From the NCBI GenBank assembly GCA_965220085.1, contig CBDCOZ010000002.1:96001-160000 (forward strand): a DNA stretch of 64,000 bases, given 5' to 3'. The notes below the pieces were generated by a model that saw only the letters and a program-made list of their open reading frames with translations, was not told the origin of the DNA and did no database searches. A program made the translations under genes and the position numbers. The stretch's first letter is position 1. Every line of letters begins with the position of its first letter. This DNA is from Candidatus Oxydemutatoraceae bacterium (lineage in GTDB: Bacteria > Pseudomonadota > Gammaproteobacteria > Poriferisulfidales > Oxydemutatoraceae). Below, in pieces: positions 3,071-63,888 of this stretch.

Positions 3071-3120
3071 ACTCCCCCTTGCGCTAACTATTGCTCCCCC
3101 TTGCGGGGGAGCCGGCGTAG
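3071..3120. repeat. REP-like hairpin between convergent ctpA and sel1 genes
   Basis: gctcccccttgcgggggagc at 3093-3112; same family as the CTCTCCCGCGAGGGGAGAG hairpins elsewhere in the window. Confidence 0.7.
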
Positions 3121-3185: not shown

Positions 3186-4790
3186 TTATTCCTCGTTCTT
3201 CGCCTGTTTTTTCCGGATTTTCTCCATGAGAAGTTTGGCTTCCGCTTGTGCTGTCGCCAAGTCGTTAGCAGACAATAATCTGGCATCATCATCTCGGTAT
3301 TTCACTGATTGCTCGTACCCGTTCCCCGCCGCAATAGAATGCCAGATATATGCCTCCCGGTGGTTTTGCGCAACGCCCTTTCCGTTGTGATACATCACGC
3401 CGAGATTAAATTGCGCCTTGGCGTATCCCTGATTGGCGGCAAGTCGAAACCACTTCCCCGCTTCTACAGAATCTTGTTTAACGCCCTGCCCGTTGTGATA
3501 CATCAAGCCAAGGTTATATTGCGCAATGGCGTATTCTTGTTGGGCAGCGCGCCGATACCATCTCTCTGCTTCTGCATAATCCTGCTTAATGCCTCTGCCA
3601 TTGTAATACGTTGAACCGAGATTGTTTTGTGCGCTGGCGACTCCTTGTTCGGCGGCATGTTGAAACCACTTCCCTGCTTCTGCGTAATCTTGTTTAACGC
3701 CTATGCCATTGGCATACATCACGCCAAGATTATGTTGCGCAATGGCATATTCTTGTTGGGCAGCGCACCGATACCATTTCTCTGCTTCTGCATAATCCTG
3801 CTGAATGCCTTGCCCGCTTCCATACATCAAGCCAAGATTAAATTGCGCTCTGGCGTCTCCCTGATTGGCAGCGCACTGAAGCCACTTTACCGCTTTTGCA
3901 TAATCCTGCTTAACGCCCCGACCATAGTAATACATTATGCCAAGACCAAATTGCGCCTTGGCGTCTTCCCGTTCGGCGGCAAGTTGAAACCACTTTGCCG
4001 CTTCTGCATAGTCCTGCTGAATGTCCCGACCGTAGTAATACATCATGCCAAGATTAAATTGCGCTTTGGCATGCCCCCGATTGGCAGCGTACTGAAACCA
4101 CTTTGCCGCTTCTGCATAATCCTGCTGAATGCCCCGACCATAGTAATACATCTCGCCAAGATTAAATTGTGCTTTGATATCCTTCGCCTTCTCCTTTTCT
4201 TCGGTCTCGGCGAAAGTGTTATCTGCCGAGGGCGTCTCAGTTGTGGATTTCACTCCGCCATTCTCTTTACTGGCGGCAGCCGCATCAGGCGCCAAATCTT
4301 TTGCGGTTGATTCTTCATCCGCTTTCCCCTTCTTAAGGGAGGTGGTGGCCGCAGGTTCCCGTTCCGACGTAGAGTCTTGCGGGTAGATCTCTATGCCTTC
4401 ACCTCCAATTTTCTTCACTCGGCTGGTGAGCTCGCTTATTTCCGGCTCCAAATCTTTTGCGGTTAATCCTTCATCTACTTTCCCCTTCTTAAGGGAGGTG
4501 GTTGCCGCAGGTTCTGATTCCGACGCGGGTTGTTGCTTGTAGAGTTTTAGGCCTGCGATGCTCTTCAGCCGGTTGATGCTCTCGCTTATTTCCTCGGAGA
4601 ATTTGTTTACGAACCAGACGAATGCCCCGACAATTATGCCGACGTAAACAACGGTTGGAGACATAATGGAGTTCACCAGTTTGAGGAATGTATCTTGGAT
4701 TCCGATGACGTCGGCGAGCCAAAGAGAAAGGAAAGCGATGCCGACAAAAACAGCGACGAAAATAATGGCAGTGATAATTTTTTTGCGCAT
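3186..4790 (-). CDS. Sel1-repeat membrane-anchored protein (paralogue A)
   Basis: Two N-terminal TM helices, a duplicated linker, about eight 36-aa Sel1 repeats (AQFNLG.MY..G.G..QDYAEA.KW...AA.QG); start at ATG 4790 because the ORF extension lies in a repeat. Confidence 0.92.
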   Translation of the reverse strand: MRKKIITAIIFVAVFVGIAFLSLWLADVIGIQDTFLKLVNSIMSPTVVYVGIIVGAFVWFVNKFSEEISESINRLKSIAGLKLYKQQPASESEPAATTSLKKGKVDEGLTAKDLEPEISELTSRVKKIGGEGIEIYPQDSTSEREPAATTSLKKGKADEESTAKDLAPDAAAASKENGGVKSTTETPSADNTFAETEEKEKAKDIKAQFNLGEMYYYGRGIQQDYAEAAKWFQYAANRGHAKAQFNLGMMYYYGRDIQQDYAEAAKWFQLAAEREDAKAQFGLGIMYYYGRGVKQDYAKAVKWLQCAANQGDARAQFNLGLMYGSGQGIQQDYAEAEKWYRCAAQQEYAIAQHNLGVMYANGIGVKQDYAEAGKWFQHAAEQGVASAQNNLGSTYYNGRGIKQDYAEAERWYRRAAQQEYAIAQYNLGLMYHNGQGVKQDSVEAGKWFRLAANQGYAKAQFNLGVMYHNGKGVAQNHREAYIWHSIAAGNGYEQSVKYRDDDARLLSANDLATAQAEAKLLMEKIRKKQAKNEE

Positions 4791-4823
4791 TGGTTTTTTT
4801 CTCTGACAGGATTCTATCACCTT

Positions 4824-5009
4824 TCCGTGGCGCACCCCCTCACCGACTCGCTGCGCTCGCCGACTCTCCCACGAGGGGAGAGTAAGCATGTCCTGCGCAA
4901 TCCGTAGCGCACCCCCTCACCGACTCGCTGCGCTCGCCGACTCCCCCACGAGGGGAGAGTAAGCATGTCCTGCGCAATCCGCTGCGAGCGTTGAGTCATC
5001 CGTTTAAGC
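4824..5009. repeat. Two 77-bp REP-containing units plus a ~30-nt tail, direct repeat of 16342-16901
   Basis: Units start at 4835 and 4912; the tail gcgagcgttgagtcatccgtttaagc recurs at 16876-16901. Confidence 0.9.
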
Positions 5010-16341: not shown

Positions 16342-16901
16342 CCCCCTCACCGACCCGCTGCGCTCGCCGACTCTCCCGCGAGGGGAGAGTAAGCGTGTCC
16401 CGCGCAATCCGTGGCGCACCCCCTCACCGACTCGCTGCGCTCGCCGACTTTCCCACGAGGGGAGAGTAAGCATGTCCCGCGCAATCCGTGGCGCACCCCC
16501 TCACCGACTCGCTGCGCTCGCCGACTTTCCCGCGAGGGGAGAGTAAGCATGTCCCGCGCAATCCGTGGCGCACCCCCTCACCGACTCGCTGCGCTCGCCG
16601 ACTCTCCCGCGAGGGGAGAGTAAGCATGTCCCGCGCAATCCGTGGCGCACCCCCTCACCGACTCGCTGCGCTCGCCGACTCTCCCGCGAGGGGAGAGTAA
16701 GCGTGTCCCGCGCAATCCGTGGCGCACCCCCTCACCGACTCGCTGCGCTCGCCGACTCTCCCGCGAGGGGAGAGTAAGCGTGTCCCGCGCAATCCGTGGC
16801 GCATCCCCTCACCGACTCGCTGCGCTCGCCGACTCTCCCGCGAGGGGAGAGTAAGCGTGTCCCGCGCAATACGGTGCGAGTGTTGAGTCATCCGTTTAAG
16901 C
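16342..16901. repeat. 77-bp tandem array (7 units) carrying the hairpin CTCTCCC-GCGAG-GGGAGAG
   Basis: Units at 16342, 16419, 16496, 16573, 16650, 16727 and 16804; near-identical, no unique spacers. Confidence 0.95.
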
Positions 16902-16975: not shown

Positions 16976-18067
16976 TTACCGCCGCGCCCAGGTGTAGCGT
17001 TCTTTTAGCGCATTCCCGCACGAGAATTTTATTTTTCTGTCGTGTTGCAGACGGCCAACGACAATGCCCGGGGCGATGCCTATCTTATCGGCGAAGTCCT
17101 CAATGGCTTGAAGCGGGTATCCGCCAAGCCCCTCCTCAAGCAGAAACGCGTTGTACTCTGCCGGCGGGATAAGCATATTGCGCGCAAAAACATCAGCCTC
17201 TTCCTCCTCCTTTTCATACATCACACCACATTCCAAAAAAACTTTCTTGCGGCCGTGTTTGAGGATGTGCCCCGCCTCATGGAAAAAGGCGAACCACAGT
17301 TGGTCGTTGCTCTTGTAGCGCAGGCTCAGTTGAATCATCGCCTTGCCGTCAAACCAGCGTGTGCATCCGGACACCTTTGTCTTGGGCAGTTCGGGAACAA
17401 AAACCAAGGCGACACCGGCTTGCGCACAGTCCCGAATTAACTGCGGCTGAAAAACTTCGGGCTGTTCCCGCGTTAATTCCCGCGCCCGATTCAGCGCTTG
17501 TCTAAAAGCCGCGCGGTTGAAATTCGGGATGTCCATTTCAAGAGCCTCTATTTCTCCGCGACGGAGCCAGGCCGAAAGGGCATAGGAGTTCGCCTCAAAT
17601 CGCGCGGCTTGGCGGTAGGCTATTTTGGAAGCAACCTTCCATTGCGCCGGCGAAGCGATGCCGAAGAACTGCAGCACACTGTCGAGTTGATCTGTCGGAT
17701 TTCGGCGCTTGGCAATCCAGTCTTGTTTGATCATCTGCGCCACGGGAAACTTCTTGAGCCAGTTCAACCGGCCTTGCAGGCGCTTTTGCTCCGCCTGCCT
17801 GGCTTTAATGTCGTCATGATTTTGCTGCAGAGCGCTCCAAAAGTACGAAGGCTTATTGAATATGCGATGCAATTTGATGGCGGTGTCGGCCGTCACCGGC
17901 GCCTTGCCGCGGATGATCTCGTTAATCGCCTTCTTGCTGAGACCGGTGCGACCGGCCAACTCAACCTGCGTCATCCCGTAAGCCGCCAAATACTCCCCCA
18001 GCAATTCGCCGGGATGCGTAGCGGTGTCGGGGCGATAGTCGCTCTGACGAAGTGCGCTACTTGCCAT
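16976..18067 (-). CDS. higA: HigA-family XRE antitoxin fused to an ImmA/IrrE-type metallopeptidase domain
   Basis: HPGELL..MTQVELAGRTG..INEIIRG HTH; FFHEAGH (HExxH) and EEEADVFA; start overlaps the toxin stop. Confidence 0.88.
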   Translation of the reverse strand: MASSALRQSDYRPDTATHPGELLGEYLAAYGMTQVELAGRTGLSKKAINEIIRGKAPVTADTAIKLHRIFNKPSYFWSALQQNHDDIKARQAEQKRLQGRLNWLKKFPVAQMIKQDWIAKRRNPTDQLDSVLQFFGIASPAQWKVASKIAYRQAARFEANSYALSAWLRRGEIEALEMDIPNFNRAAFRQALNRARELTREQPEVFQPQLIRDCAQAGVALVFVPELPKTKVSGCTRWFDGKAMIQLSLRYKSNDQLWFAFFHEAGHILKHGRKKVFLECGVMYEKEEEEADVFARNMLIPPAEYNAFLLEEGLGGYPLQAIEDFADKIGIAPGIVVGRLQHDRKIKFSCGNALKERYTWARR

Positions 18068-18913
18068 GGGTATTCTCCACTCCGAGAATTTCAATGGTGT
18101 CTGCCTGTTTCCAATCCAGTCCTCCGTCGGGTTTTCTTGGGATGGGATTGTGAGCGGGCACAAATATCAAGCGCTGAATATCCGTTAAATCGACCGACAA
18201 CTGACATTGCCGCCCGCGCTTGCCGCCGGTCAACTCATGACAGCGCGCCGGAGGAGTTTTGGGAGGCCCCATGTCCGCAAGCGTTTTGGCGGCGGCTAGT
18301 TCGGCCATGCGTCTGCGTATTTTTTTGACCATGCTACCATACTCTTTACTTAAGATTGCGTTCGCTGTTAAAAGTTTTCTCAAGTTTTTTCGTTCGGGAT
18401 TGTGAGCGGGCACAAATATCAAGCGCTGAATATCCGTTAAATCGACCGACAACTGACATTGCCGCCCGCGCTTGCCGCCGGTCAACTCATGACAGCGCGC
18501 CGGAGGAGTTTTGGGAGGCCCCATGTCCGCAAGCGTTTTGGCGGCGGCTAGTTCGGCCATGCGTCTGCGTATTTTTTTGGCCATGCTACCATACTCTTTC
18601 TTAAGATTGCGTTCGCTGTTAAAAGTTTTCTCAAGTTTTTTCGTTCGGAAATGTGAGCGGGCACAAATATCAAGCGCTGAATATCCGTTAAATCGACCGA
18701 CAACTGACATTGCCGCCCGCGCTTGCCGCCGGTCAACTCATGACAGCGCGCCGGAGGAGTTTTGGGAGGCCCCATGTCCGCAAGCGTTTTGGCGGCGGCT
18801 AGTTCGGCCATGCGTCTGCGTATTTTTTTGGCCATGCTACCATACTCTTTCTTAAGATTGCGTTCGCTGTTAAAAGTTTTCTCAAGTTTTTTCGTTCGGA
18901 AATGGATAACCAT
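18057..18913 (-). pseudogene. higB: HigB/RelE-type toxin gene disrupted by an internal ~251-bp triplication
   Basis: MVIHFRTKKLEKTFNS..PPARCHELTG..LSVDL..RLIFVP present three times (periods 251 and 252 nt); the ATG-started frame misses the native C-terminus. Confidence 0.8.
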
Positions 18914-19231: not shown

Positions 19232-20392
19232 CTACAGTTGTATGATGCGTTCCATCATTGCAGGCAGCGGAACGATTTCAGTACCCTGAGATGTCTGGCG
19301 GGTGTCGGCGCCGGGGTAGACGATGAAGCTACGCTTAATGCGCAGGTCGGCGCATGCTTGGCGGAAGCCTTTGGAGAGTTTGGGAGCGGAGTTGCGCTTG
19401 ATTTCTATCGCCCAGAGTTTGCCGGCGCCCATCTCCAGTATCAGGTCTATCTCGGCACCGGCGGAAGTCCGGTAGAAGAAGCTTTGGGTACCCGGCGGCA
19501 AGACGCTGTGCAGATTGTCGATGACGAAACCCTCCCAACTGGCGCCGCTTGCGGGGTGATTGAGCAGGGCGGCGATGTCTTGCAAGCCCAGCAAGGCATG
19601 CGCCATGCCGCTGTCGCGGATGTATATCTTGGGTGATTTGATCAGGCGCTTGCCGACATTGCCGTGCCACGGCGGCAGGCGACGTAGCAACAGCAACTCT
19701 TCGAGCAAACCCAGATAGCGGTTCACAGTCTGCCCGCTGATGCCAAGCGCTCTCGCCAGAGTCGCAACATTGAGCAGGCTGCCTTGGCGATGTGCGAGCG
19801 CCGCCCAGAAGCGGCGCAGCACGGGCGCCGGAATGCGCGCATCCAGTTGCGTGATGTCGCGCTCCAGATAGGCGGTGAGGAAGCGGCGGCGGCAGCCCAT
19901 GCTGCTCGCATCATCTGTGGCCAGATAACTTTCCGGAAAGCCGCCGCGCAACCACAGCCGATTGTGGTCGTCCGCATCCCGTAGCGACAGCGGGGTCATC
20001 TCCAGATAGGCTATGCGCCCCGCCAGACTTTCGCCGGGCTGGCGCAACAGCGTCCCGGACGCCGAGCCCAGAAACAGGAACTGACCATTGTCGCGGCGCT
20101 CCGGCAGGTCGCGGTCTATGATGTTGCGAATCGGCGCGAAGATGTCGGGAATCTGCTGTATCTCATCCAGTATCACCAGGCAGTCCCGATGACTGGCGCA
20201 AAACAAATCAATGTCCTCGACCTCGCTTCGGTCGGCGGGGTTTTCCAAATCCTTGTAGACCGCATCCCGCATTTTTGCTATCTGCCGCGCGAGGGCGGTC
20301 TTGCCTACCTGCCGCGGGCCCAGCAAGGCCACGGCGGGGTAGCGCCGCAGGTGATCCAGCACCTTTAGGAATAGTGACTCTCGTGCAATCAT
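19232..20392 (-). CDS. AAA_14 ATPase with DUF4143 domain
   Basis: GPRQVGKT, LDEIQ, GSAS, ESLAGR, GGFPE, KSPKIYIRDSG, EIDL..AIEIK. Confidence 0.9.
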   Translation of the reverse strand: MIARESLFLKVLDHLRRYPAVALLGPRQVGKTALARQIAKMRDAVYKDLENPADRSEVEDIDLFCASHRDCLVILDEIQQIPDIFAPIRNIIDRDLPERRDNGQFLFLGSASGTLLRQPGESLAGRIAYLEMTPLSLRDADDHNRLWLRGGFPESYLATDDASSMGCRRRFLTAYLERDITQLDARIPAPVLRRFWAALAHRQGSLLNVATLARALGISGQTVNRYLGLLEELLLLRRLPPWHGNVGKRLIKSPKIYIRDSGMAHALLGLQDIAALLNHPASGASWEGFVIDNLHSVLPPGTQSFFYRTSAGAEIDLILEMGAGKLWAIEIKRNSAPKLSKGFRQACADLRIKRSFIVYPGADTRQTSQGTEIVPLPAMMERIIQL

Positions 20393-20520
20393 CCTTGCAA
20401 TCCTATAAGCATGGTTGCAATATTGCAAGGATTAGCGGGCTGGTATGTGAGGGCAATGCAAGATTTTCACTCCTCCGCAAGGGGAAGTGATGGGCTACGG
20501 CGGGCGAATATTTCGCAGGT

Positions 20521-20623: not shown

Positions 20624-21166
20624 CTATACTCTCCCCTCGCGGGAGAGTCGGCAAGCGTAGTGCGCCGGAGAGGGGGAAAGCTCTCGCAAGATGCCTAGTG
20701 GCAATGTGCAAGATGTCCGGTTCTGTCTCCGGGAGTATCCGGACAAAGAAATTTTAATTCTTGTTTTCCGCCTGTTTTCTCGAATTTTTTCCAGACGGCA
20801 CACGGCTTCGGCTTGCGCTGCCTCCAAGCTGCTGGCGGACAATAACTTGGCGACGTCGTCTCGGCATTTCGCCGATCGCTTATACCCATTCCCTGCCGCA
20901 ATGGAATACCAGATATATGCCTCCTTATAGTTTTGTGCAACGCTCTGACCGTTGACATACATCAAGCCGAGATTGTTTTGTGCGCTGGCGTCCCCCTGTT
21001 CGGCGGCGCGTCGATACCATTTCACCGCTTTCTTATAATCTTGCTCAACGCCTTTGCCAGCTAAACACATCCAGCCGAGCTCAAATTGCGCTTTGGCATC
21101 CCCCGCTTTTGCTTTTTCTCTGGTTTCGTCAAAAGAACCACCTGTCGAGGGCGTTTCATTTTTCAA
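20624..21166 (-). pseudogene. Truncated Sel1-repeat gene (paralogue B) with a frameshift near the 3' end
   Basis: Two Sel1 repeats and the shared AYIWYSIAAGNG..AQAEA tail; no TM N-terminus; one A is missing near 20776 relative to the paralogue ends, so the frame runs into the REP element. Confidence 0.7.
20628..20780. repeat. REP element plus sel1 3' flank, direct repeat of 27884-28030
   Basis: ctctcccctcgcgggagagtcggcaagcgtag..gcaagatgcctagtggcaatgtgcaagatgtccggttct shared by both sites. Confidence 0.85.
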
Positions 21167-21206
21167 TTTGTCGGAACGGCGGAAAACCGGAAATAATGTC
21201 CGAACC

Positions 21207-21241
21207 CTTGTCGTTCCCAAGTACCGCTTGGGAACGACAAG
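21207..21241. terminator. 15-bp-stem hairpin just downstream of the Imm gene (terminator or REP-type)
   Basis: cttgtcgttcccaag-taccg-cttgggaacgacaag; no clear U-tract. Confidence 0.5.
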
Positions 21242-21246
21242 AACGG

Positions 21247-21543
21247 TTAATTGTCCGCCCGCGGATGCCCACAGCCGGGACACGCAGTCGCATGCGGTGA
21301 AATTTTCTTGCCGCACATCTGACACGCAATAAGCGAACTCGACGAATCCTGCTCCTCTCTGGTTTCTTTGGGCCTTGTGTTATCGCTACAAGCCAAAGCC
21401 AAAGCGATAGCCCAACCGACCCCAGTCCATCCGAGGAAAAAATTGACGACAAATATCGGCGCGGTGTTTTTGTGCTCGCGGTTCGCTGCGACTATCGTCG
21501 GCAGAAAGTAAAGTGCGATGGCGATGGGGATGAGAAATTCCAT
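21247..21543 (-). CDS. Superinfection immunity (T4 Imm-like) membrane protein with C-terminal zinc ribbon
   Basis: LYFLPTIVA..R.H.N..IFVVNFFLGWTGVGW..AL, then CQMC..CPGC. Confidence 0.85.
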   Translation of the reverse strand: MEFLIPIAIALYFLPTIVAANREHKNTAPIFVVNFFLGWTGVGWAIALALACSDNTRPKETREEQDSSSSLIACQMCGKKISPHATACPGCGHPRADN

Positions 21544-26611: not shown

Positions 26612-27817
26612 TCAGTTTGACGGAGGGCGGCTTCTTAGCACCACGGTCACATGCGTCTCGCGCACCCGGAATTCCGGGGCGGGGTTGCCGTTGCGCTCCA
26701 TCGAGCGGCGGATGGCGCCGATGCCGAAGCCGAAGCGCTCGATCAACTCCGCTGCCCGCATCGCTTCCGCTAACTTTCTGTTGCGATAATCGGTCAATCC
26801 TTCCTCTCCGAAACTGTCGGCGGTCACCCGTCCGTAAGGCCCGCCGGGGTTGCGGATTTCCACGCGGTCTTCAAACCAGTAGCATTGGGTTGGCGCGTTA
26901 GTGCCTTCGTAAGAGCGATGTAAAACCGCGTTACGGATGGCTTGTTGCAGAGCGATGAAAGGATAGTCGGGAGAATCCACCCGATGTTTTTCGCCGATGA
27001 CGGCCGAAGTTCGGATGTGGGTTTTCATTAGCGATTCAATGTCGCTGATTTGCTGAAAGACTGTTCCATGAATTTGCTTGTGATCAATGGCCTCAGCGGC
27101 GGAAACAATGTCTGTCCCGGGACAGCGCAGGAATTGAATGTAAGCGCCGCCCAGCCACTCTTGTGGCTCCTTGCCAAAGCATAAGATTCCGGCGTTATTG
27201 ACATTGCCTGCGGTGTTCATGAATCCGAGGGATTGCAGTTGGCGGGAAATGTCGCGATTGTTTTCGGCGAGCGTGTCCGCCGACACCGCCTTGGTTAAGT
27301 AGTCCTGAAACGCATACGGGTTCAAGTCGTTCGGCGCGGCGGGCGGACGGGCGGGACGCTGGTCAAAAGTCAGGTCGGCGGCGACGCGTTTTTCATTCAG
27401 ACGGACTTCATCATTGGGGCTGGCGATGGCCGCGCTGGAGCCAATGCGAACCCAACAGCGTCCGTCATAGCGCACTGGCGGATCAATAACGGGCTCCACA
27501 ATCACAACGGCGACATCCGCGCCTTGCAAGTGTCGCTTTTGCGCCGTCATGGTCGGTAGCGGGAGAATCTTTTTGTTGTGTCGCAATCCCGTCAGCATCC
27601 GCAGGAGGTCATCGTCCACGGGCAACTGCCCGGTCGGCTCGCCCTTGTCGTTCACCCCGATGAAAAGGATGCCCGGCTTGCCGTGACCGGACAGGTCGTT
27701 CGCAAAGGCGCAAATCGCCTTGCAGAGTTTGTCCGTATCCGTTTCGGACACGGCAAACCCTGCCCGCTCGGACTCCCCCTCGCACAGAAACTCTAGCAGT
27801 TGTTCGTCGGTCAGCAT
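26612..27817 (-). CDS. AlbA_2/Schlafen-domain ATP-binding protein with RecG-C/HATPase-like C-terminus
   Basis: ICAFAND..G.LFIGVNDKG, NAVLHRSY, EIRNPGG, YRN.KLA, IERFGFGI; TATAAT 6 nt before the ATG. Confidence 0.85.
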   Translation of the reverse strand: MLTDEQLLEFLCEGESERAGFAVSETDTDKLCKAICAFANDLSGHGKPGILFIGVNDKGEPTGQLPVDDDLLRMLTGLRHNKKILPLPTMTAQKRHLQGADVAVVIVEPVIDPPVRYDGRCWVRIGSSAAIASPNDEVRLNEKRVAADLTFDQRPARPPAAPNDLNPYAFQDYLTKAVSADTLAENNRDISRQLQSLGFMNTAGNVNNAGILCFGKEPQEWLGGAYIQFLRCPGTDIVSAAEAIDHKQIHGTVFQQISDIESLMKTHIRTSAVIGEKHRVDSPDYPFIALQQAIRNAVLHRSYEGTNAPTQCYWFEDRVEIRNPGGPYGRVTADSFGEEGLTDYRNRKLAEAMRAAELIERFGFGIGAIRRSMERNGNPAPEFRVRETHVTVVLRSRPPSN

Positions 27818-27883
27818 TTGGGAATTATAACGACCTCGCAATTCAACCGGCGCTTGTGGCCATAGCACTCGCACGAACCTGCA

Positions 27884-28030
27884 CTCTCCCCTCGCGGGAG
27901 AGTCGGCAAGCGTAGCGCGCCGGAGAGGGGAATCTTTCGCAAGATGCCTAGTGGCAATGTGCAAGATGTCCGGTTCTATCCCCGGGAGTATCCGGATAAA
28001 GAGATCTTATTCTTCGCTCTTCGCCTGTTT
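27884..28030. repeat. REP element plus sel1 3' flank, direct repeat of 20628-20780
   Basis: Same ~150-nt sequence as at 20628. Confidence 0.85.
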
Positions 28031-29257
28031 CTCTCGGATTTTCTCTAGGCGGCGCGTAGCTTCGGCTTGCGCTTGTGCCAAATCACCAGCAGATAATAAC
28101 TTGGCATTATTATTCCGGTATTTCACTGAGTCTTCCTCCCCATTCGCCGCTGCAATGGAGTGCCAGATATACGCTTCCTTGTAGTTTTGCGCAACGCCCT
28201 GACCCTTGTGATACATCACGCCGAGATTAAATTGTGCATCGGCGGTTCCCTGTTCGGCAGCAAGGCGATACCACTTTACCGCCTCCTTATCGTTTTGCAC
28301 GACGCCCTGACCGTTGTCATACATCACGCCGAGATTAAATTGTGCATCGGCATCTCCCTGTTCGGCAGCGCGTCGATACCACTTTACCGCCTCTTTATCG
28401 TTTTGCACGACGCCCTGACCGTTGTCATACATCACGCCGAGATTAAATTGTGCATCGGCATCTCCCTGTTTGGCAGCAAGGCGATACCACTTCATCGCCT
28501 CCGCATAATCTTGCGCAACGCCCTGACCGTCGTGATACATCAAGCCGAGATTGTTTTGTGCGATGGCGGTTCCCTGTTCGGCAGCAAGGCGATACCACTT
28601 GAGCGCTTGCGCAAAATCTTTCTCAACGCCTTGTCCGTTTTGATACATCACGCCAAGATTAAATTGCGCATTGGTATGTCCCTGTTCGGCGGCGCGTCGA
28701 AGCCATCTCTCCGCTTCCTTATAGTCTTGCACAACGCTTTGGCCGTTGTAATACATCACACCGAGATCATTTTGTGCTTTAGCGTCTCCCGCTTCCGCCT
28801 TTTCTTTGATTTCGGCGAAAGAATCACCTTCCGCGGCTGTCTTGGCTATTGGTTCTGCCCCACTTTTCTCTTTATCAGTGGTAGCCGAATCAGACGCTGG
28901 ATCTTTTGTGGTTAATCTCTCATCTACTTTTGTCTTCTCAAGAGAGGCGGTTGTCGTAGACTTCTGTTCCAACATATGTCGTTTCGGGTAGGCCTCTATG
29001 CCTCCACCTCCAATTTTCTTTATTCGGCTAATAGTTTCGCTTACTTCCTCGTAGAATTTGTTCACGAACCAGACGAGAACTCCGACGATTATGATGGTGA
29101 CAACAACGGGTGAGGACAGACTAGAGTCCACCAGCTGGATGAATTCGTCTTGGATTCCGATGAGGTTAGCGAGCCAGAGAGAAAGGAAAGCGACGGCGAC
29201 AAAAACGACGACGGCGAGCGCAATGGTGAAAACGACGATGGCGATTCTTTTGTACAT
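28007..29257 (-). CDS. Sel1-repeat membrane-anchored protein (paralogue C)
   Basis: N-terminus homologous to paralogue A (FLSLWLA..IGIQD.F..LV), about six Sel1 repeats, two of them nearly identical at DNA level. Confidence 0.92.
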   Translation of the reverse strand: MYKRIAIVVFTIALAVVVFVAVAFLSLWLANLIGIQDEFIQLVDSSLSSPVVVTIIIVGVLVWFVNKFYEEVSETISRIKKIGGGGIEAYPKRHMLEQKSTTTASLEKTKVDERLTTKDPASDSATTDKEKSGAEPIAKTAAEGDSFAEIKEKAEAGDAKAQNDLGVMYYNGQSVVQDYKEAERWLRRAAEQGHTNAQFNLGVMYQNGQGVEKDFAQALKWYRLAAEQGTAIAQNNLGLMYHDGQGVAQDYAEAMKWYRLAAKQGDADAQFNLGVMYDNGQGVVQNDKEAVKWYRRAAEQGDADAQFNLGVMYDNGQGVVQNDKEAVKWYRLAAEQGTADAQFNLGVMYHKGQGVAQNYKEAYIWHSIAAANGEEDSVKYRNNNAKLLSAGDLAQAQAEATRRLEKIREKQAKSEE

Positions 29258-29302
29258 TCGGTTTTTCCTTTGGCAGAATTCTATCACTTCTCCGTAGTGT
29301 AT

Positions 29303-29420
29303 CCCCTCTCCAGCGAGCGAAGCTCGCTGACTCTCCCGCAAGGGGAGAGTGCTACCAGTGCGAGCAACTTAAATATGCTTATTCCACCGCATTAATCAAG
29401 ACTCTCCCGCAAGGGGGAGC
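29303..29420. repeat. Two REP-like hairpins between res3 and sel1C
   Basis: ctctcccgcaaggggagag at 29331 and ctctcccgcaagggggag at 29402. Confidence 0.75.
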
Positions 29421-29479
29421 ACACAGTGCGAGGGAGGCGGTTGAGCAAGCGGGTTAGGAGAGGCAATTAAGCAAGCAGG

Positions 29480-61099: not shown

Positions 61100-61173
61100 G
61101 GGCGCGTAGCTCAGCCGGTTAGAGCACCACCTTCACATGGTGGGGGTCGTTGGTTCGAATCCATCCGCGCCTA
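61100..61173 (+). tRNA. tRNA-Val (CAC), CCA not encoded
   Basis: gggcgcgtagctcagccggttagagca-ccacc-tt-cac-at-ggtgg..ggttcgaatcc; one mismatch in the T stem. Confidence 0.93.
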
Positions 61174-61204: not shown

Positions 61205-61549
61205 TCAATAGCCGCCTTTGCGGCGGCTTTCGGGCAAGCCCGCGATGCGCCCGGCCTGCTTGCTCGGGTCTTTCGGGAACAAGTCGTACAAGTCTTTCGC
61301 GCCGACGCCTTTGTCGCCCCACTTCGCTTGCATCGCTTTGACTATGTTGCGCGTGTTGGGTTGGTTTTCGTTATTGTTGAGAAACTCCTCGCGCAAATAA
61401 TTCAGCACATCCCAATGTTTGTCCGTCAGCGCCAGATCGTCGGATCGGGCAATCGCTTCGGCGACATCGGGCGTCCAATCCTGCGCATTGAGCAGATAGC
61501 CGTTGTCATTCGTTTCGATTTCTTTGTCTTTTACCGCTAATGTCGGCAT
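61205..61549 (-). CDS. TusE/DsrC-family protein with no cysteine (RspA-like)
   Basis: GYL..DWT..VA.AIA, LTDKHW.V..YLR, LY.LFP..P.KQA.RIAGLP; ends RRKGGY. Confidence 0.88.
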   Translation of the reverse strand: MPTLAVKDKEIETNDNGYLLNAQDWTPDVAEAIARSDDLALTDKHWDVLNYLREEFLNNNENQPNTRNIVKAMQAKWGDKGVGAKDLYDLFPKDPSKQAGRIAGLPESRRKGGY

Positions 61550-61659
61550 CGTTTTTGTCTCCTGATAAAAGTTGAATGGATAAGTGAGGCGATAATTTTA
61601 CCACTTTCCCGTAAGCTATCCTTTTCCCTCACAAAGGCAGAGTATTGCACAGCGCTAAC

Positions 61660-62080
61660 CATTACTCCCCCTTGCGAGGGAGTCGAGGCGTCTCCCTGTT
61701 CGGTAGCATGTTGATACCACATTACTCCCCCCTTGCGGGGGAGTCGGTGCGAGGGGATGGCTCGCGCTATCGCAACGGGCCATTACACCCCCTCGCAGGA
61801 TGCCAGCAGCGCTCTCCCCTCGCGGGAGAGTCGGGTTGGCATGCCGCCGCTTTTTGCGCCGCCCTTGTGGCACTCCCCCCTCGCGGGAGAGTCGGCGTAG
61901 CACAGCTTCGCCGGAGAGGGGGAAGGAGCAGACTTCAATGCGCTTTGTGTCTTCACCAAACCTTGCCTCCTCGCCGCATCGTCCGTCCTCTGCGGCTTGT
62001 CCTCTGCGCTTGGCGCAAGCCGGAAACTTTCCCACAAGGAGGTTTCGCCGGCGGAGCAATTCTCCCGCAAGGGGAGAGTA
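61660..62080. repeat. Cluster of REP-family hairpins; 61660-61894 has a CRISPR-like 60-61 bp period
   Basis: Repeats at 61660, 61720, 61781 (degenerate), 61807 and 61868; 34-nt interveners; inverted hairpin near 62061. Confidence 0.75.
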
Positions 62081-62084
62081 TTGC

Positions 62085-62774
62085 TTACTGCGCGGGGTCA
62101 TAAACCGCCGCGATGCTTTTGTGCGGCAGGAAAATGCCGCAGCCGATCACCCGGTGTTCGCCGAGCCCGCGCTGTTGCAGGCGTATGGAATCGTTAAAAC
62201 TGAGACCGTCGACCATCAGGCTGCGACAGCTTAATTCCCCTTCGCGACCCGCGATCGTGTGTTGGCGCCCGGTCATAATCCTCAGTGTCGTGATGTCTTG
62301 TCGCTTCAGCATAGCGGCGACCCGCTCAAGAAAAGCGCTTTCATCCAGCGGCGCGGCAAAGGCGATGCGGCGCGCAAACAACGTGGTCTCACGGCTCAAC
62401 AAGCGCGTGCGCGAGACCCCGAGTCGCAAGTCGTAACCGCCAAGGCCGAGGGTTTGGCGTTCCAGCGCGCGGGCTACTTCGACCTGCTCTGCCGGCAGCC
62501 GCACGATAAAGCGCGCCCGTTTTGAGAGGTGAATAATACCGCCGGCGGCGGGGCGCATCCAGCCGTTGCCGGATTCCGCTCCGTGCAAGGTATGGATGCC
62601 GATATCGGGATTGTCCCTGACCCACGGCAGCGCATCTGCCACCGCCCGATACAGCGCTTTGCCATGGTCGATCGGCAACTTCGCGCACGTCACACGGAAT
62701 ACCAGATCGACGATGTCCTCGGGCACCTTGGGCGGCCGGGCTTTGGTATCGCTGTCTTCCCAATGCAGGCTCAC
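62085..62774 (-). CDS. cas6: Stand-alone Cas6 (Cmx6 / I-MYXAN-like) RAMP protein
   Basis: VDLVF.V..LP.DH..LY.A, LHLS-like IHLSKR, and C-terminal Gly-rich loop LQQRGLGEHRVIGCGIFLP. Confidence 0.85.
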   Translation of the reverse strand: MSLHWEDSDTKARPPKVPEDIVDLVFRVTCAKLPIDHGKALYRAVADALPWVRDNPDIGIHTLHGAESGNGWMRPAAGGIIHLSKRARFIVRLPAEQVEVARALERQTLGLGGYDLRLGVSRTRLLSRETTLFARRIAFAAPLDESAFLERVAAMLKRQDITTLRIMTGRQHTIAGREGELSCRSLMVDGLSFNDSIRLQQRGLGEHRVIGCGIFLPHKSIAAVYDPAQ

Positions 62775-63006: not shown

Positions 63007-63888
63007 TTACAGGCGGCAGAGTTGTTGCCAGCCGGTGTCCGGCAGGCGCTTGTGATAGCGCGCCCGGTACAGCAAGCGTTTGCTTTCGGCGCCGCTTTCA
63101 AACGCGCTGCGGTCGTGCAACACATTATTGCAAATCACCCCTTCGCCGGCCTTGAGTTGTCGCACCAGTTGATACTTTTCGTGGTGCGAGACTATCTCCC
63201 GTAAGCGGGACAATGCTTGCGCGCATTCCTTGCGCCACGTGATATTGCGCTTGCGGTCGGTATAGCGCATGAGCAGATTGCCGTCGGCATCGCTTGCGAG
63301 CGCCGGGTTGCTTTGTGCGGGGCGGCTGCCGTTCGCCGGAATGGTCATCGCCTCGGGGTGCATCAAGGTGCGGATATGTTCGGGGTTTTCATCCCGCAAC
63401 AGGATATAGATGATGTCGGGGTCAAGGTAGCGGTTTATCCCGCCCTCTTTTGCCGGGCGAACACAATGCATGATGAACGAACCGATAGCGTGTGTCGCAT
63501 CGTTATAGTAACCGTCGGTGTGCCAGGTCAGGGCGCTGTCGGAATAGGGTATGTAGTCGCTGTCATCGGTTTCTTGGATCAGGCTGATGTGTTGCGCGTT
63601 GGCGCGCGGGTTGGCGACCGGTTCGTCAAGACCGAGTCGCTGTCCGAGCGCGCGGATGTCGGACGGGCGCACTGTCGTTTGTTGCGACCGATAAAAGCAG
63701 ATGTTTGTCTTGCGGCATTGGCGCTTGATCGCTTCGATGTCTCGGTCGTTGAGCTCTGCCGGACTTTTGATCGCAATCGGGGCGGTCGCCGGATGTGTCC
63801 AGGCTTCAAACTTGTGTTTGCGCCAGCGCCGGTAAGTCGCCTCGTCGCTGCCGAGGAGGTCGGCGCATGTTGTATCTTGTTGTTTCAT
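63007..63888 (-). CDS. TauD/TfdA-family dioxygenase-like protein
   Basis: YIPY..L.WHTDGYYN, MHCVRPA..GG.N, NNVLHDR, R.LYRARY. Confidence 0.88.
   Translation of the reverse strand: MKQQDTTCADLLGSDEATYRRWRKHKFEAWTHPATAPIAIKSPAELNDRDIEAIKRQCRKTNICFYRSQQTTVRPSDIRALGQRLGLDEPVANPRANAQHISLIQETDDSDYIPYSDSALTWHTDGYYNDATHAIGSFIMHCVRPAKEGGINRYLDPDIIYILLRDENPEHIRTLMHPEAMTIPANGSRPAQSNPALASDADGNLLMRYTDRKRNITWRKECAQALSRLREIVSHHEKYQLVRQLKAGEGVICNNVLHDRSAFESGAESKRLLYRARYHKRLPDTGWQQLCRL

Follow-up and report, generated by a model that had tools for sequence, protein, structure and literature searches.

A Sel1-coding piece between REP-like hairpins beside an orphan cas6 homologue is probably gene scrap rather than a CRISPR spacer

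Does a 34-base piece of Sel1-repeat coding sequence, lying between two hairpin repeats next to a cas6 homologue, act as an RNA guide towards the host's own sel1 genes, or is it a fragment without function? We addressed this question in the window, by which we mean the whole 64,000-nucleotide stretch of DNA that was analysed (G000:C2:96001-160000). It belongs to a genome of 2,492,841 bases in 3 contigs that is 99% complete; positions are those of the window unless a contig is named. The piece sits in a 535-nt gap between a minus-strand cas6 homologue and a TusE/DsrC-family gene. Within this gap a hairpin repeat has four clear copies in plus orientation, which start at 61667, 61728, 61815 and 61876, with start-to-start spacings of 61, 87 and 61 nt, and the local copies are 71-88% alike. 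An earlier note on this DNA had described the piece as the first spacer of a mini-array and had offered two readings, a guide directed at a whole family of host-interaction genes or a neutral fragment that had been captured. The second of these fits the evidence assembled here. With a probability of about 0.8, we consider the piece to be a non-functional scrap of Sel1 coding sequence, either the relic of a sel1A-like paralogue or a patch copied from one. The features that bear on the argument are collected in Table 1.

Table 1. Features of the window and of the rest of the genome that bear on the Sel1-derived piece (window positions unless a contig is named).
Feature	Position	Strand	Remarks
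sel1A	3186..4889	-	8 Sel1 stretches, PF08238 E 2.8e-81; bracketed by hairpin repeats
Tandem array of the hairpin family	C2:112367-112853 (= window 16367-16853)		77-nt units
Three genes between the sel1 paralogues	16976-18163, 19232-20428, 26612-27964
sel1B	20624..21325	-	short paralogue, 2 Sel1 stretches
sel1C	28007..29341	-	6 Sel1 stretches, PF08238 E 3.7e-74; bracketed by hairpin repeats
TusE/DsrC-family sulfur relay protein gene	61205..61549	-
Opposite-orientation hairpin copy	61624-61648
Hairpin repeat copy 1	61645..61686	+	subfamily with ...TAACCATTAC prefix; nearest relative at 3081-3115
Sel1-derived fragment	61687..61720	- (coding sense)	C-terminal third of one Sel1 unit, WYQHATEQGDA
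Hairpin repeat copy 2	61720..61751	+	CATTACTCCCCCCTTGCGGGGGAGTCGG
Second 'spacer'	61748..61781	+	member of another dispersed repeat family
Degenerate hairpin copy	61782..61808	+	CATTACACCCCCTCGCAGG..., by direct reading
Hairpin repeat copy 4	61809..61838	+
Third 'spacer'	61839..61869	+	unique, best match 23 of 31
Hairpin repeat copy 5 and 3' extension	61870..61924	+	composite recurring downstream of sel1B, sel1C and at several other sites
Dispersed composite segment	61959..62040	+	recurs elsewhere in the genome
Opposite-orientation hairpin copy	62057..62085	-	directly after the cas6 stop codon
cas6 homologue (Cas6/Cmx6 family)	62085..62774	-	orphan, conserved
TauD-family dioxygenase gene	63007..63888	-	third member of the trio
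Type II system, Cas9 (best model NF049971 Cas9d)-Cas1-Cas2	C2:218570-227686		array of 66 repeats, C2:218570-222886
Tandem array of the hairpin family	C3:521435-521954		166-nt units
Tandem array of the hairpin family	C3:802710-802901		56-nt units
Type V-A system, Cas12a-Cas4-Cas1-Cas2	C3:1907098-1916956		array of 64 repeats, C3:1907098-1911083
Tandem array of the hairpin family	C3:1962416-1963106		61-nt units

The piece, GGCGTCTCCCTGTTCGGTAGCATGTTGATACCAC, begins at 61687, one base later than the start of 61686 given in the earlier note, and the window contains no second occurrence with 3 or fewer mismatches. Direct reading and a script both reproduced the reported identities of 29 of 34 bases to sel1C (28349-28382) and to sel1A (3636-3669). 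The minus strand does encode WYQHATEQGDA, or (V)(M)WYQHATEQGDA(S) in a wider reading. A six-frame search yielded 67 Sel1 unit matches in the genome, and an HMM built from 58 of these aligned its positions 26-39 with the minus-strand translation VMWYQHATEQGDAS (E-value 5e-6 in a small search). Set beside a Sel1 gene, with its full 36-residue units in an open frame, the piece amounts to those positions of a single unit. A 61-aa ORF at 61537-61722, which overlaps the start of dsrC, had no Pfam match. Scanning the whole genome without gaps, on both strands, we obtained 25 non-self places with at least 23 identities out of 34 (29 twice, 28 four times, 27 and 26 once each, and 23-25 for the remainder). 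Every one of them lies within a Sel1 gene range, in the same register, and ends at the conserved Trp codon of the unit, and the best genome-wide identity reached by 20 shuffled versions of the 34-mer was 22-24 of 34. Taken together, the in-register matches and the shuffle maxima indicate that the resemblance to sel1 is homology and exclude chance. A fortuitous likeness, for which nothing speaks beyond the shortness of the piece, has a probability of practically nil when shuffles stop at 24 and the genome offers 29 twice and 28 four times, all in register.

The joint best matches to the piece are one sel1A unit (WFQHAAEQGVA) and one unit of sel1C. A perfect donor among the sel1 genes of the genome, which the earlier note had proposed to look for, did not emerge from blastn-short or from the ungapped whole-genome scan, the best identity being 29 of 34. 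Likewise, 18 genomes of the same family contained no match to the 34-mer within 3 mismatches, a degenerate pattern that covers every possible coding sequence of WYQHATEQGDA gave 0 matches in metagenome contigs and viral contigs, and an exact 22-mer of the piece gave 0 matches in metagenome contigs. The 29 of 34 identities fall inside the nearest-neighbour range of 57 real Sel1 units (23-34), and on this measure the piece resembles any other member of the C2 sel1 group, with moderate divergence. A sel1A-like source is suggested by two linked observations. First, Trp-Tyr of the piece is followed by 'QH', a pair that 1 of the 57 units shares, namely the sel1A unit among the two best matches. Second, hairpin copy 1, which follows the piece on the coding strand, has its closest relative immediately downstream of sel1A, with 88% identity over 34 nt. 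The piece and the adjoining copy 1 are colinear, on the coding strand, with sel1A and its downstream hairpin.

The three sel1 paralogues of the contig are themselves bracketed by hairpin composites, at 3081-3115, 4860-4961, 20627-20651, 27882-27906 and 29327-29421. The reading frame of sel1B continues past the position of the sel1C stop codon and into the downstream hairpin repeat, and this paralogue looks like a decaying copy. Since all three genes are bracketed by the composites, and sel1B is shortened and reads into a repeat, hairpin-flanked sel1 copies are thus duplicating and decaying on contig C2. The genes between the paralogues encode HTH_3 with Peptidase_M78 (IrrE-like), an AAA_14/DUF4143 ATPase, and Schlafen AlbA_2/HATPase_c_4 domains; this neighbourhood looks mobile or defence-related.

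The hairpins that enclose the piece belong to a family that is spread over the whole genome. The pattern CTCYCCCCTYGYGGGRGAGTC, searched with at most 1 mismatch, has 86 copies on all three contigs, 35 forward and 51 reverse, and the same pattern written backwards, used as a control, gave 0 matches. Across 40 relatives (18 of the same family and 22 of the same order, with no further strain of this species or genus among them) each genome had 0-2 copies, and any copy at all was present in 2 of the 40. A looser fuzzy search gave 128 merged copies (70 minus and 58 plus), and this set was used instead of a first strict regular expression for the hairpin (88 matches), which was too crude. When ORFs of at least 300 aa were masked, a crude mask rather than a gene call that covers 67% of the genome, 5 of the 128 copies lay well inside them; at 200 aa the count was 24 of 128 against a genome coverage of 80%. 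With the limit set to 100 aa, 51 of 128 copies fell inside, and this mask was discarded because spurious ORFs of that length cover repeat clusters. The stems of the hairpins are G+C-rich and 7-8 bp long, with loops of 4-5 nt. Tandem arrays of the family elsewhere in the genome contain interveners that are identical from unit to unit. Genome-wide, neighbouring copies enclose 55 segments of 15-150 nt, most of which proved to be repeats themselves, and no further one of the 55 looked gene-derived. The family is thus a short imperfect palindrome with a stable hairpin, present in many dispersed and clustered copies in both orientations and extragenic; a search of the 99%-complete genome for a Y1/RAYT transposase (PF01797) found none. 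Judged by these properties, the family is a REP-like extragenic repeat with a lineage-specific expansion, and we call it REP-like rather than REP because PF01797 was not found.

Repeats also account for most of what lies between the hairpins in the gap. The segment at 61748-61781 shares 97% identity over 34 nt with sequences at C3:1138988 and C3:1890460. Up to 162 short matches genome-wide overlap this segment, whose repeat family, with the core ...GCTCGCGCTATCGCAACGGGC..., often adjoins the hairpin family. The segment at 61959-62040 matches C3:1229244-1229359 (80% over 117 nt) and C1:40085-40233 (73% over 169 nt), and the sites at which this segment and 61871-61924 recur include these two places and C3:1430329-1430381. 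The third intervener, 61839-61869, had no match above chance. The own-genome Sel1 HMM, run in six frames, detected no Sel1 remnant in the other interveners, and the other tblastn matches of sel1A, sel1B and sel1C had E-values of at least 0.2 and were not colinear, leaving one Sel1-like piece in the 571 nt searched. The earlier note had named, as an outcome that would overturn its own reading, a decayed sel1 pseudogene invaded by REPs in which other interveners also align to sel1; the REP-like surroundings are indeed present, but no alignment to sel1 was obtained for the other interveners. At the two junctions of the piece, the Sel1 unit and the flank consensus of the repeat share GGCG on one side (GTCGGCG) and CA or ACCA on the other (TAACCATTA). 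These overlaps are compatible with a microhomology-mediated rearrangement and, at 2-4 nt, could be due to chance. The strand opposite to dsrC carries, immediately downstream of it, a tRNA gene (61100-61173; Rfam RF00005, 64.9 bits) with copies that are 92-93% identical elsewhere in the genome and in relatives. DNA runs showed no variant forms of the locus; they returned one contig identical to the window, probably its source, and otherwise pieces of the tRNA and of the repeats.

The cas6 homologue beside the gap is a genuine member of its family. It matches PF09559 (E-value 3.3e-58) and TIGR02807 (135.5 bits, the cut-off being 98.85), as well as the chain of a solved type I-B Cas6 (PDB 8fcj_B, E-value 7.7e-12), and it is the one PF09559 gene of the genome. 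In five genomes of a sister genus cas6 also adjoins dsrC, across about 75-115 nt of unrelated sequence in four and a gap of about 370 nt in one; the hairpin repeats are absent from this gap in all five, and a tauD-like gene lies upstream in 4 of the 5 loci. We extended the comparison to 80 loci of named public genomes, each coding for a related protein with 36-52% identity to this Cas6. A dsrC/tusE homologue lies directly downstream on the same strand in 59 of these, and a tauD-like match falls within the locus, likewise, in 59 of the 80. The cas6-dsrC gap in the 59 loci measures 41-383 nt between tblastn matches (median 117), compared to 536 here by the same measure. By record titles, these loci come from Gammaproteobacteria that oxidise sulfur, with strains of Halochromatium and Lamprobacter among them, and from metagenome-assembled genomes associated with sponges, and the names of its relatives make a sponge-associated sulfur oxidiser the probable identity of the present organism.

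No array, defined as a 14-mer recurring three times at a spacing of 40-100 nt, was detected in 91 relatives' loci, which comprise the 80 cas6 loci and 11 from the search of relatives, 5 of the latter with cas6. Other cas genes were not found near the trio in the loci that encode Cas6 relatives, and no trace of sel1 was found between cas6 and dsrC in any relative examined. A trio that carries neither the repeats nor an array in its relatives argues that the hairpin cluster is a lineage-specific insertion into an old, array-less set of genes, and the orphan Cas6 of the trio probably has a role outside CRISPR. Judged by titles and the opening lines of abstracts, none of the articles that we found appeared to treat a cas6-dsrC trio or these repeats.

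We assessed the CRISPR reading against the complete systems of the genome, of which there are two, type II and type V-A, both outside the window. Their arrays have 36-nt repeats that are unrelated in sequence to the hairpin, and Cas1-Cas2 occur in the genome solely beside Cas9 and Cas12a. Type II and type V-A systems do not use Cas6. One spacer of the type V-A array is present twice, in adjacent units near the start of the array. Neither a DevR-type Cas7 nor a RAMP protein was found in the 99%-complete genome, and the Cas3 core remained below its cut-off. Rfam matched the region at the tRNA alone, with no CRISPR-DR or other family.

Each component of a self-targeting CRISPR array was considered separately and rejected. 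The hairpins do not form a CRISPR array, being dispersed on both strands and 71-88% alike locally, rather than near-identical and confined to an array. The interveners are not unique spacers: 61748-61781, 61871-61924 and 61959-62040 are dispersed repeats, and where the family forms arrays elsewhere, the interveners are identical. There is no cognate system, in that neither a matching adaptation module nor an effector for Cas6-made guides was found, and no array was detected in the 91 loci of relatives. A self-targeting spacer was rejected on the best identity of 29 of 34, neither the genome nor the 18 family genomes offering a match with 3 or fewer mismatches. These results indicate that the piece does not stem from CRISPR adaptation, does not lie between CRISPR repeats and has no effector to serve; its description as the first spacer of a mini-array fails at the flanking repeats, which are not CRISPR repeats.

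The origin that best fits the locus as a whole would run as follows. In this single lineage, the REP-like hairpin cluster has enlarged the cas6-dsrC gap from about 100 nt to its present 535 nt. The same hairpin composites bracket the sel1 paralogues, and the repeats may have served as sites of rearrangement. The piece would then have remained in the gap after a deletion, or have been deposited there through ectopic recombination or a template switch, at a few bases held in common. If the gap is transcribed together with cas6 and dsrC, the piece would be part of an untranslated spacer and would have the sense of the sel1 mRNAs, as the earlier note had correctly stated for a transcript in the cas6 direction, so that it could not pair with them. 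Several observations weigh against this reading. As relatives have no sel1 at the site, a whole paralogue would need to have arrived and decayed in this lineage alone; the other interveners lack the similarity to Sel1 that would be expected, at least faintly, in a recently decayed gene; the genome has no detected PF01797 transposase; and the microhomology at the junctions (GGCG; CA or ACCA) is short enough to be chance.

In a variant of this reading, no sel1 gene would ever have stood at the site, and about 30-40 nt of a sel1 unit would have been copied into the gap while the hairpins expanded, by template switching or microhomology-mediated repair. We regard this version as possible but tentative; it is neutral as well, and it is counted inside the probability given above for the main reading. 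Relatives with nothing between cas6 and dsrC, the single Sel1-like piece in 571 nt, and junctions that both fall in bases common to the Sel1 unit and the repeat flank consensus are consistent with it. However, the microhomologies span just 2-4 nt, and the remnant of a gene is at least as well matched by the colinear pairing with a sel1A-type downstream hairpin and by the visible decay of sel1B. The piece is accordingly described here as either the remnant of a fourth paralogue at the site or a patch copied in as the repeats expanded, in both cases probably without function.

A functional guide or antisense RNA, all forms taken together, is unlikely. The plus strand could be transcribed from an unrecognised promoter into a small antisense RNA that acts independently of Cas proteins, with the hairpins as stabilisers or terminators. 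REP-type hairpins stabilise RNA ends in enterobacteria, and a 101-nt stretch of the locus folds better than its shuffles (z of -2.2 on the plus strand and -3.4 on the minus strand). Both strands fold well because of the hairpins, and nothing specific follows from this. Moreover, a simple scan revealed no promoter-like site, Rfam gave no match to an RNA family, the piece is unique to this genome, so that no conservation can be demonstrated, and 34 bases with 5 mismatches make for weak pairing. We therefore hold such an RNA to be very unlikely.

A chance just as slight attaches to the proposal that the orphan Cas6 is an RNA-processing enzyme that has acquired, in this lineage, hairpin substrates throughout the genome, and that it shapes sel1 transcripts and releases the boxed Sel1 scrap as a small RNA. 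If this were true, Cas6 would cut the untranslated hairpins that bracket, among others, the contig's three sel1 genes, and the released RNA could pair or compete with sel1 transcripts.

Hardly credible is a functional CRISPR-like guide, in which Cas6 would cut the hairpins and release a crRNA-like RNA that pairs with sel1 mRNAs and tunes the gene family. A true Cas6-family gene does lie 365 nt away, the stems and loops of the hairpins resemble those of class 1 repeats, and the start-to-start spacings are 61, 87 and 61 nt. The earlier note had also observed, rightly, that 4 of the 5 mismatches to sel1C would be G:U pairs with a plus-strand RNA. With sel1A merely 1 of 5 would be such a pair. All five differences between sel1C and the piece are transitions, and the favourable direction in 4 of 5, to which our own arithmetic gives a chance of about 0.19, could therefore easily arise by chance. 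Against this guide stand a repeat that is dispersed, present on both strands and lineage-specific; other interveners that are mostly repeats; a cas6 that is conserved without the hairpins and without an array; and the absence of a class 1 effector from what was found. In addition, a crude scan gave no promoter-like site on either strand, a transcript in the cas6 direction would be sense, the identity is 29 of 34 at best, and the 55 inter-repeat segments include no second gene-derived piece. The suggestion that the piece addresses a family of host-interaction genes has to be given up on these grounds.

Removing this false lead of RNA-guided control over host-interaction genes carries a caution. 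Dispersed hairpins spaced about 61 nt apart beside an orphan cas6 can pass for a CRISPR mini-array, and the scrap of a gene enclosed by two of them can pass for a self-targeting spacer. Two features of the locus are more valuable than the piece itself, namely the widely conserved, array-less cas6 beside dsrC/tusE, and a RAYT-less, lineage-specific burst of REP-like repeats that brackets and probably reshuffles the sel1 paralogues.

Compared to known systems, the locus resembles a CRISPR array with a self-targeting spacer in its adjacent cas6-family gene, its hairpin repeats of about 28 nt at a 61-nt spacing, and the match of one intervener to host genes. It differs in that the repeats occur genome-wide and are 71-88% alike, the interveners are mostly repeats, and there is no cognate module, no perfect protospacer and no array in relatives. 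The orphan Cas6 is like the Cas6/Cmx6 proteins of type I-MYXAN and type I-B systems in scoring above the TIGR02807 cut-off and in matching a solved type I-B Cas6, whereas here it belongs to a conserved tauD-cas6-dsrC/tusE trio with no array or other cas genes. The hairpin family is comparable to the repetitive extragenic palindromes of the REP and BIME type and the REPIN-like clusters of enterobacteria and pseudomonads, as a short imperfect palindrome that is dispersed on both strands, almost wholly extragenic, arranged in composite and tandem clusters, and expanded in a single lineage. In contrast to those, no PF01797 gene accompanies it here, and its composites carry several further repeat modules. 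Finally, the piece resembles the scraps that pseudogenes leave behind, being a short, in-register and frameless part of a multi-copy family in the orientation of its paralogues, but here about 11-14 codons are left, boxed exactly between two repeat copies.
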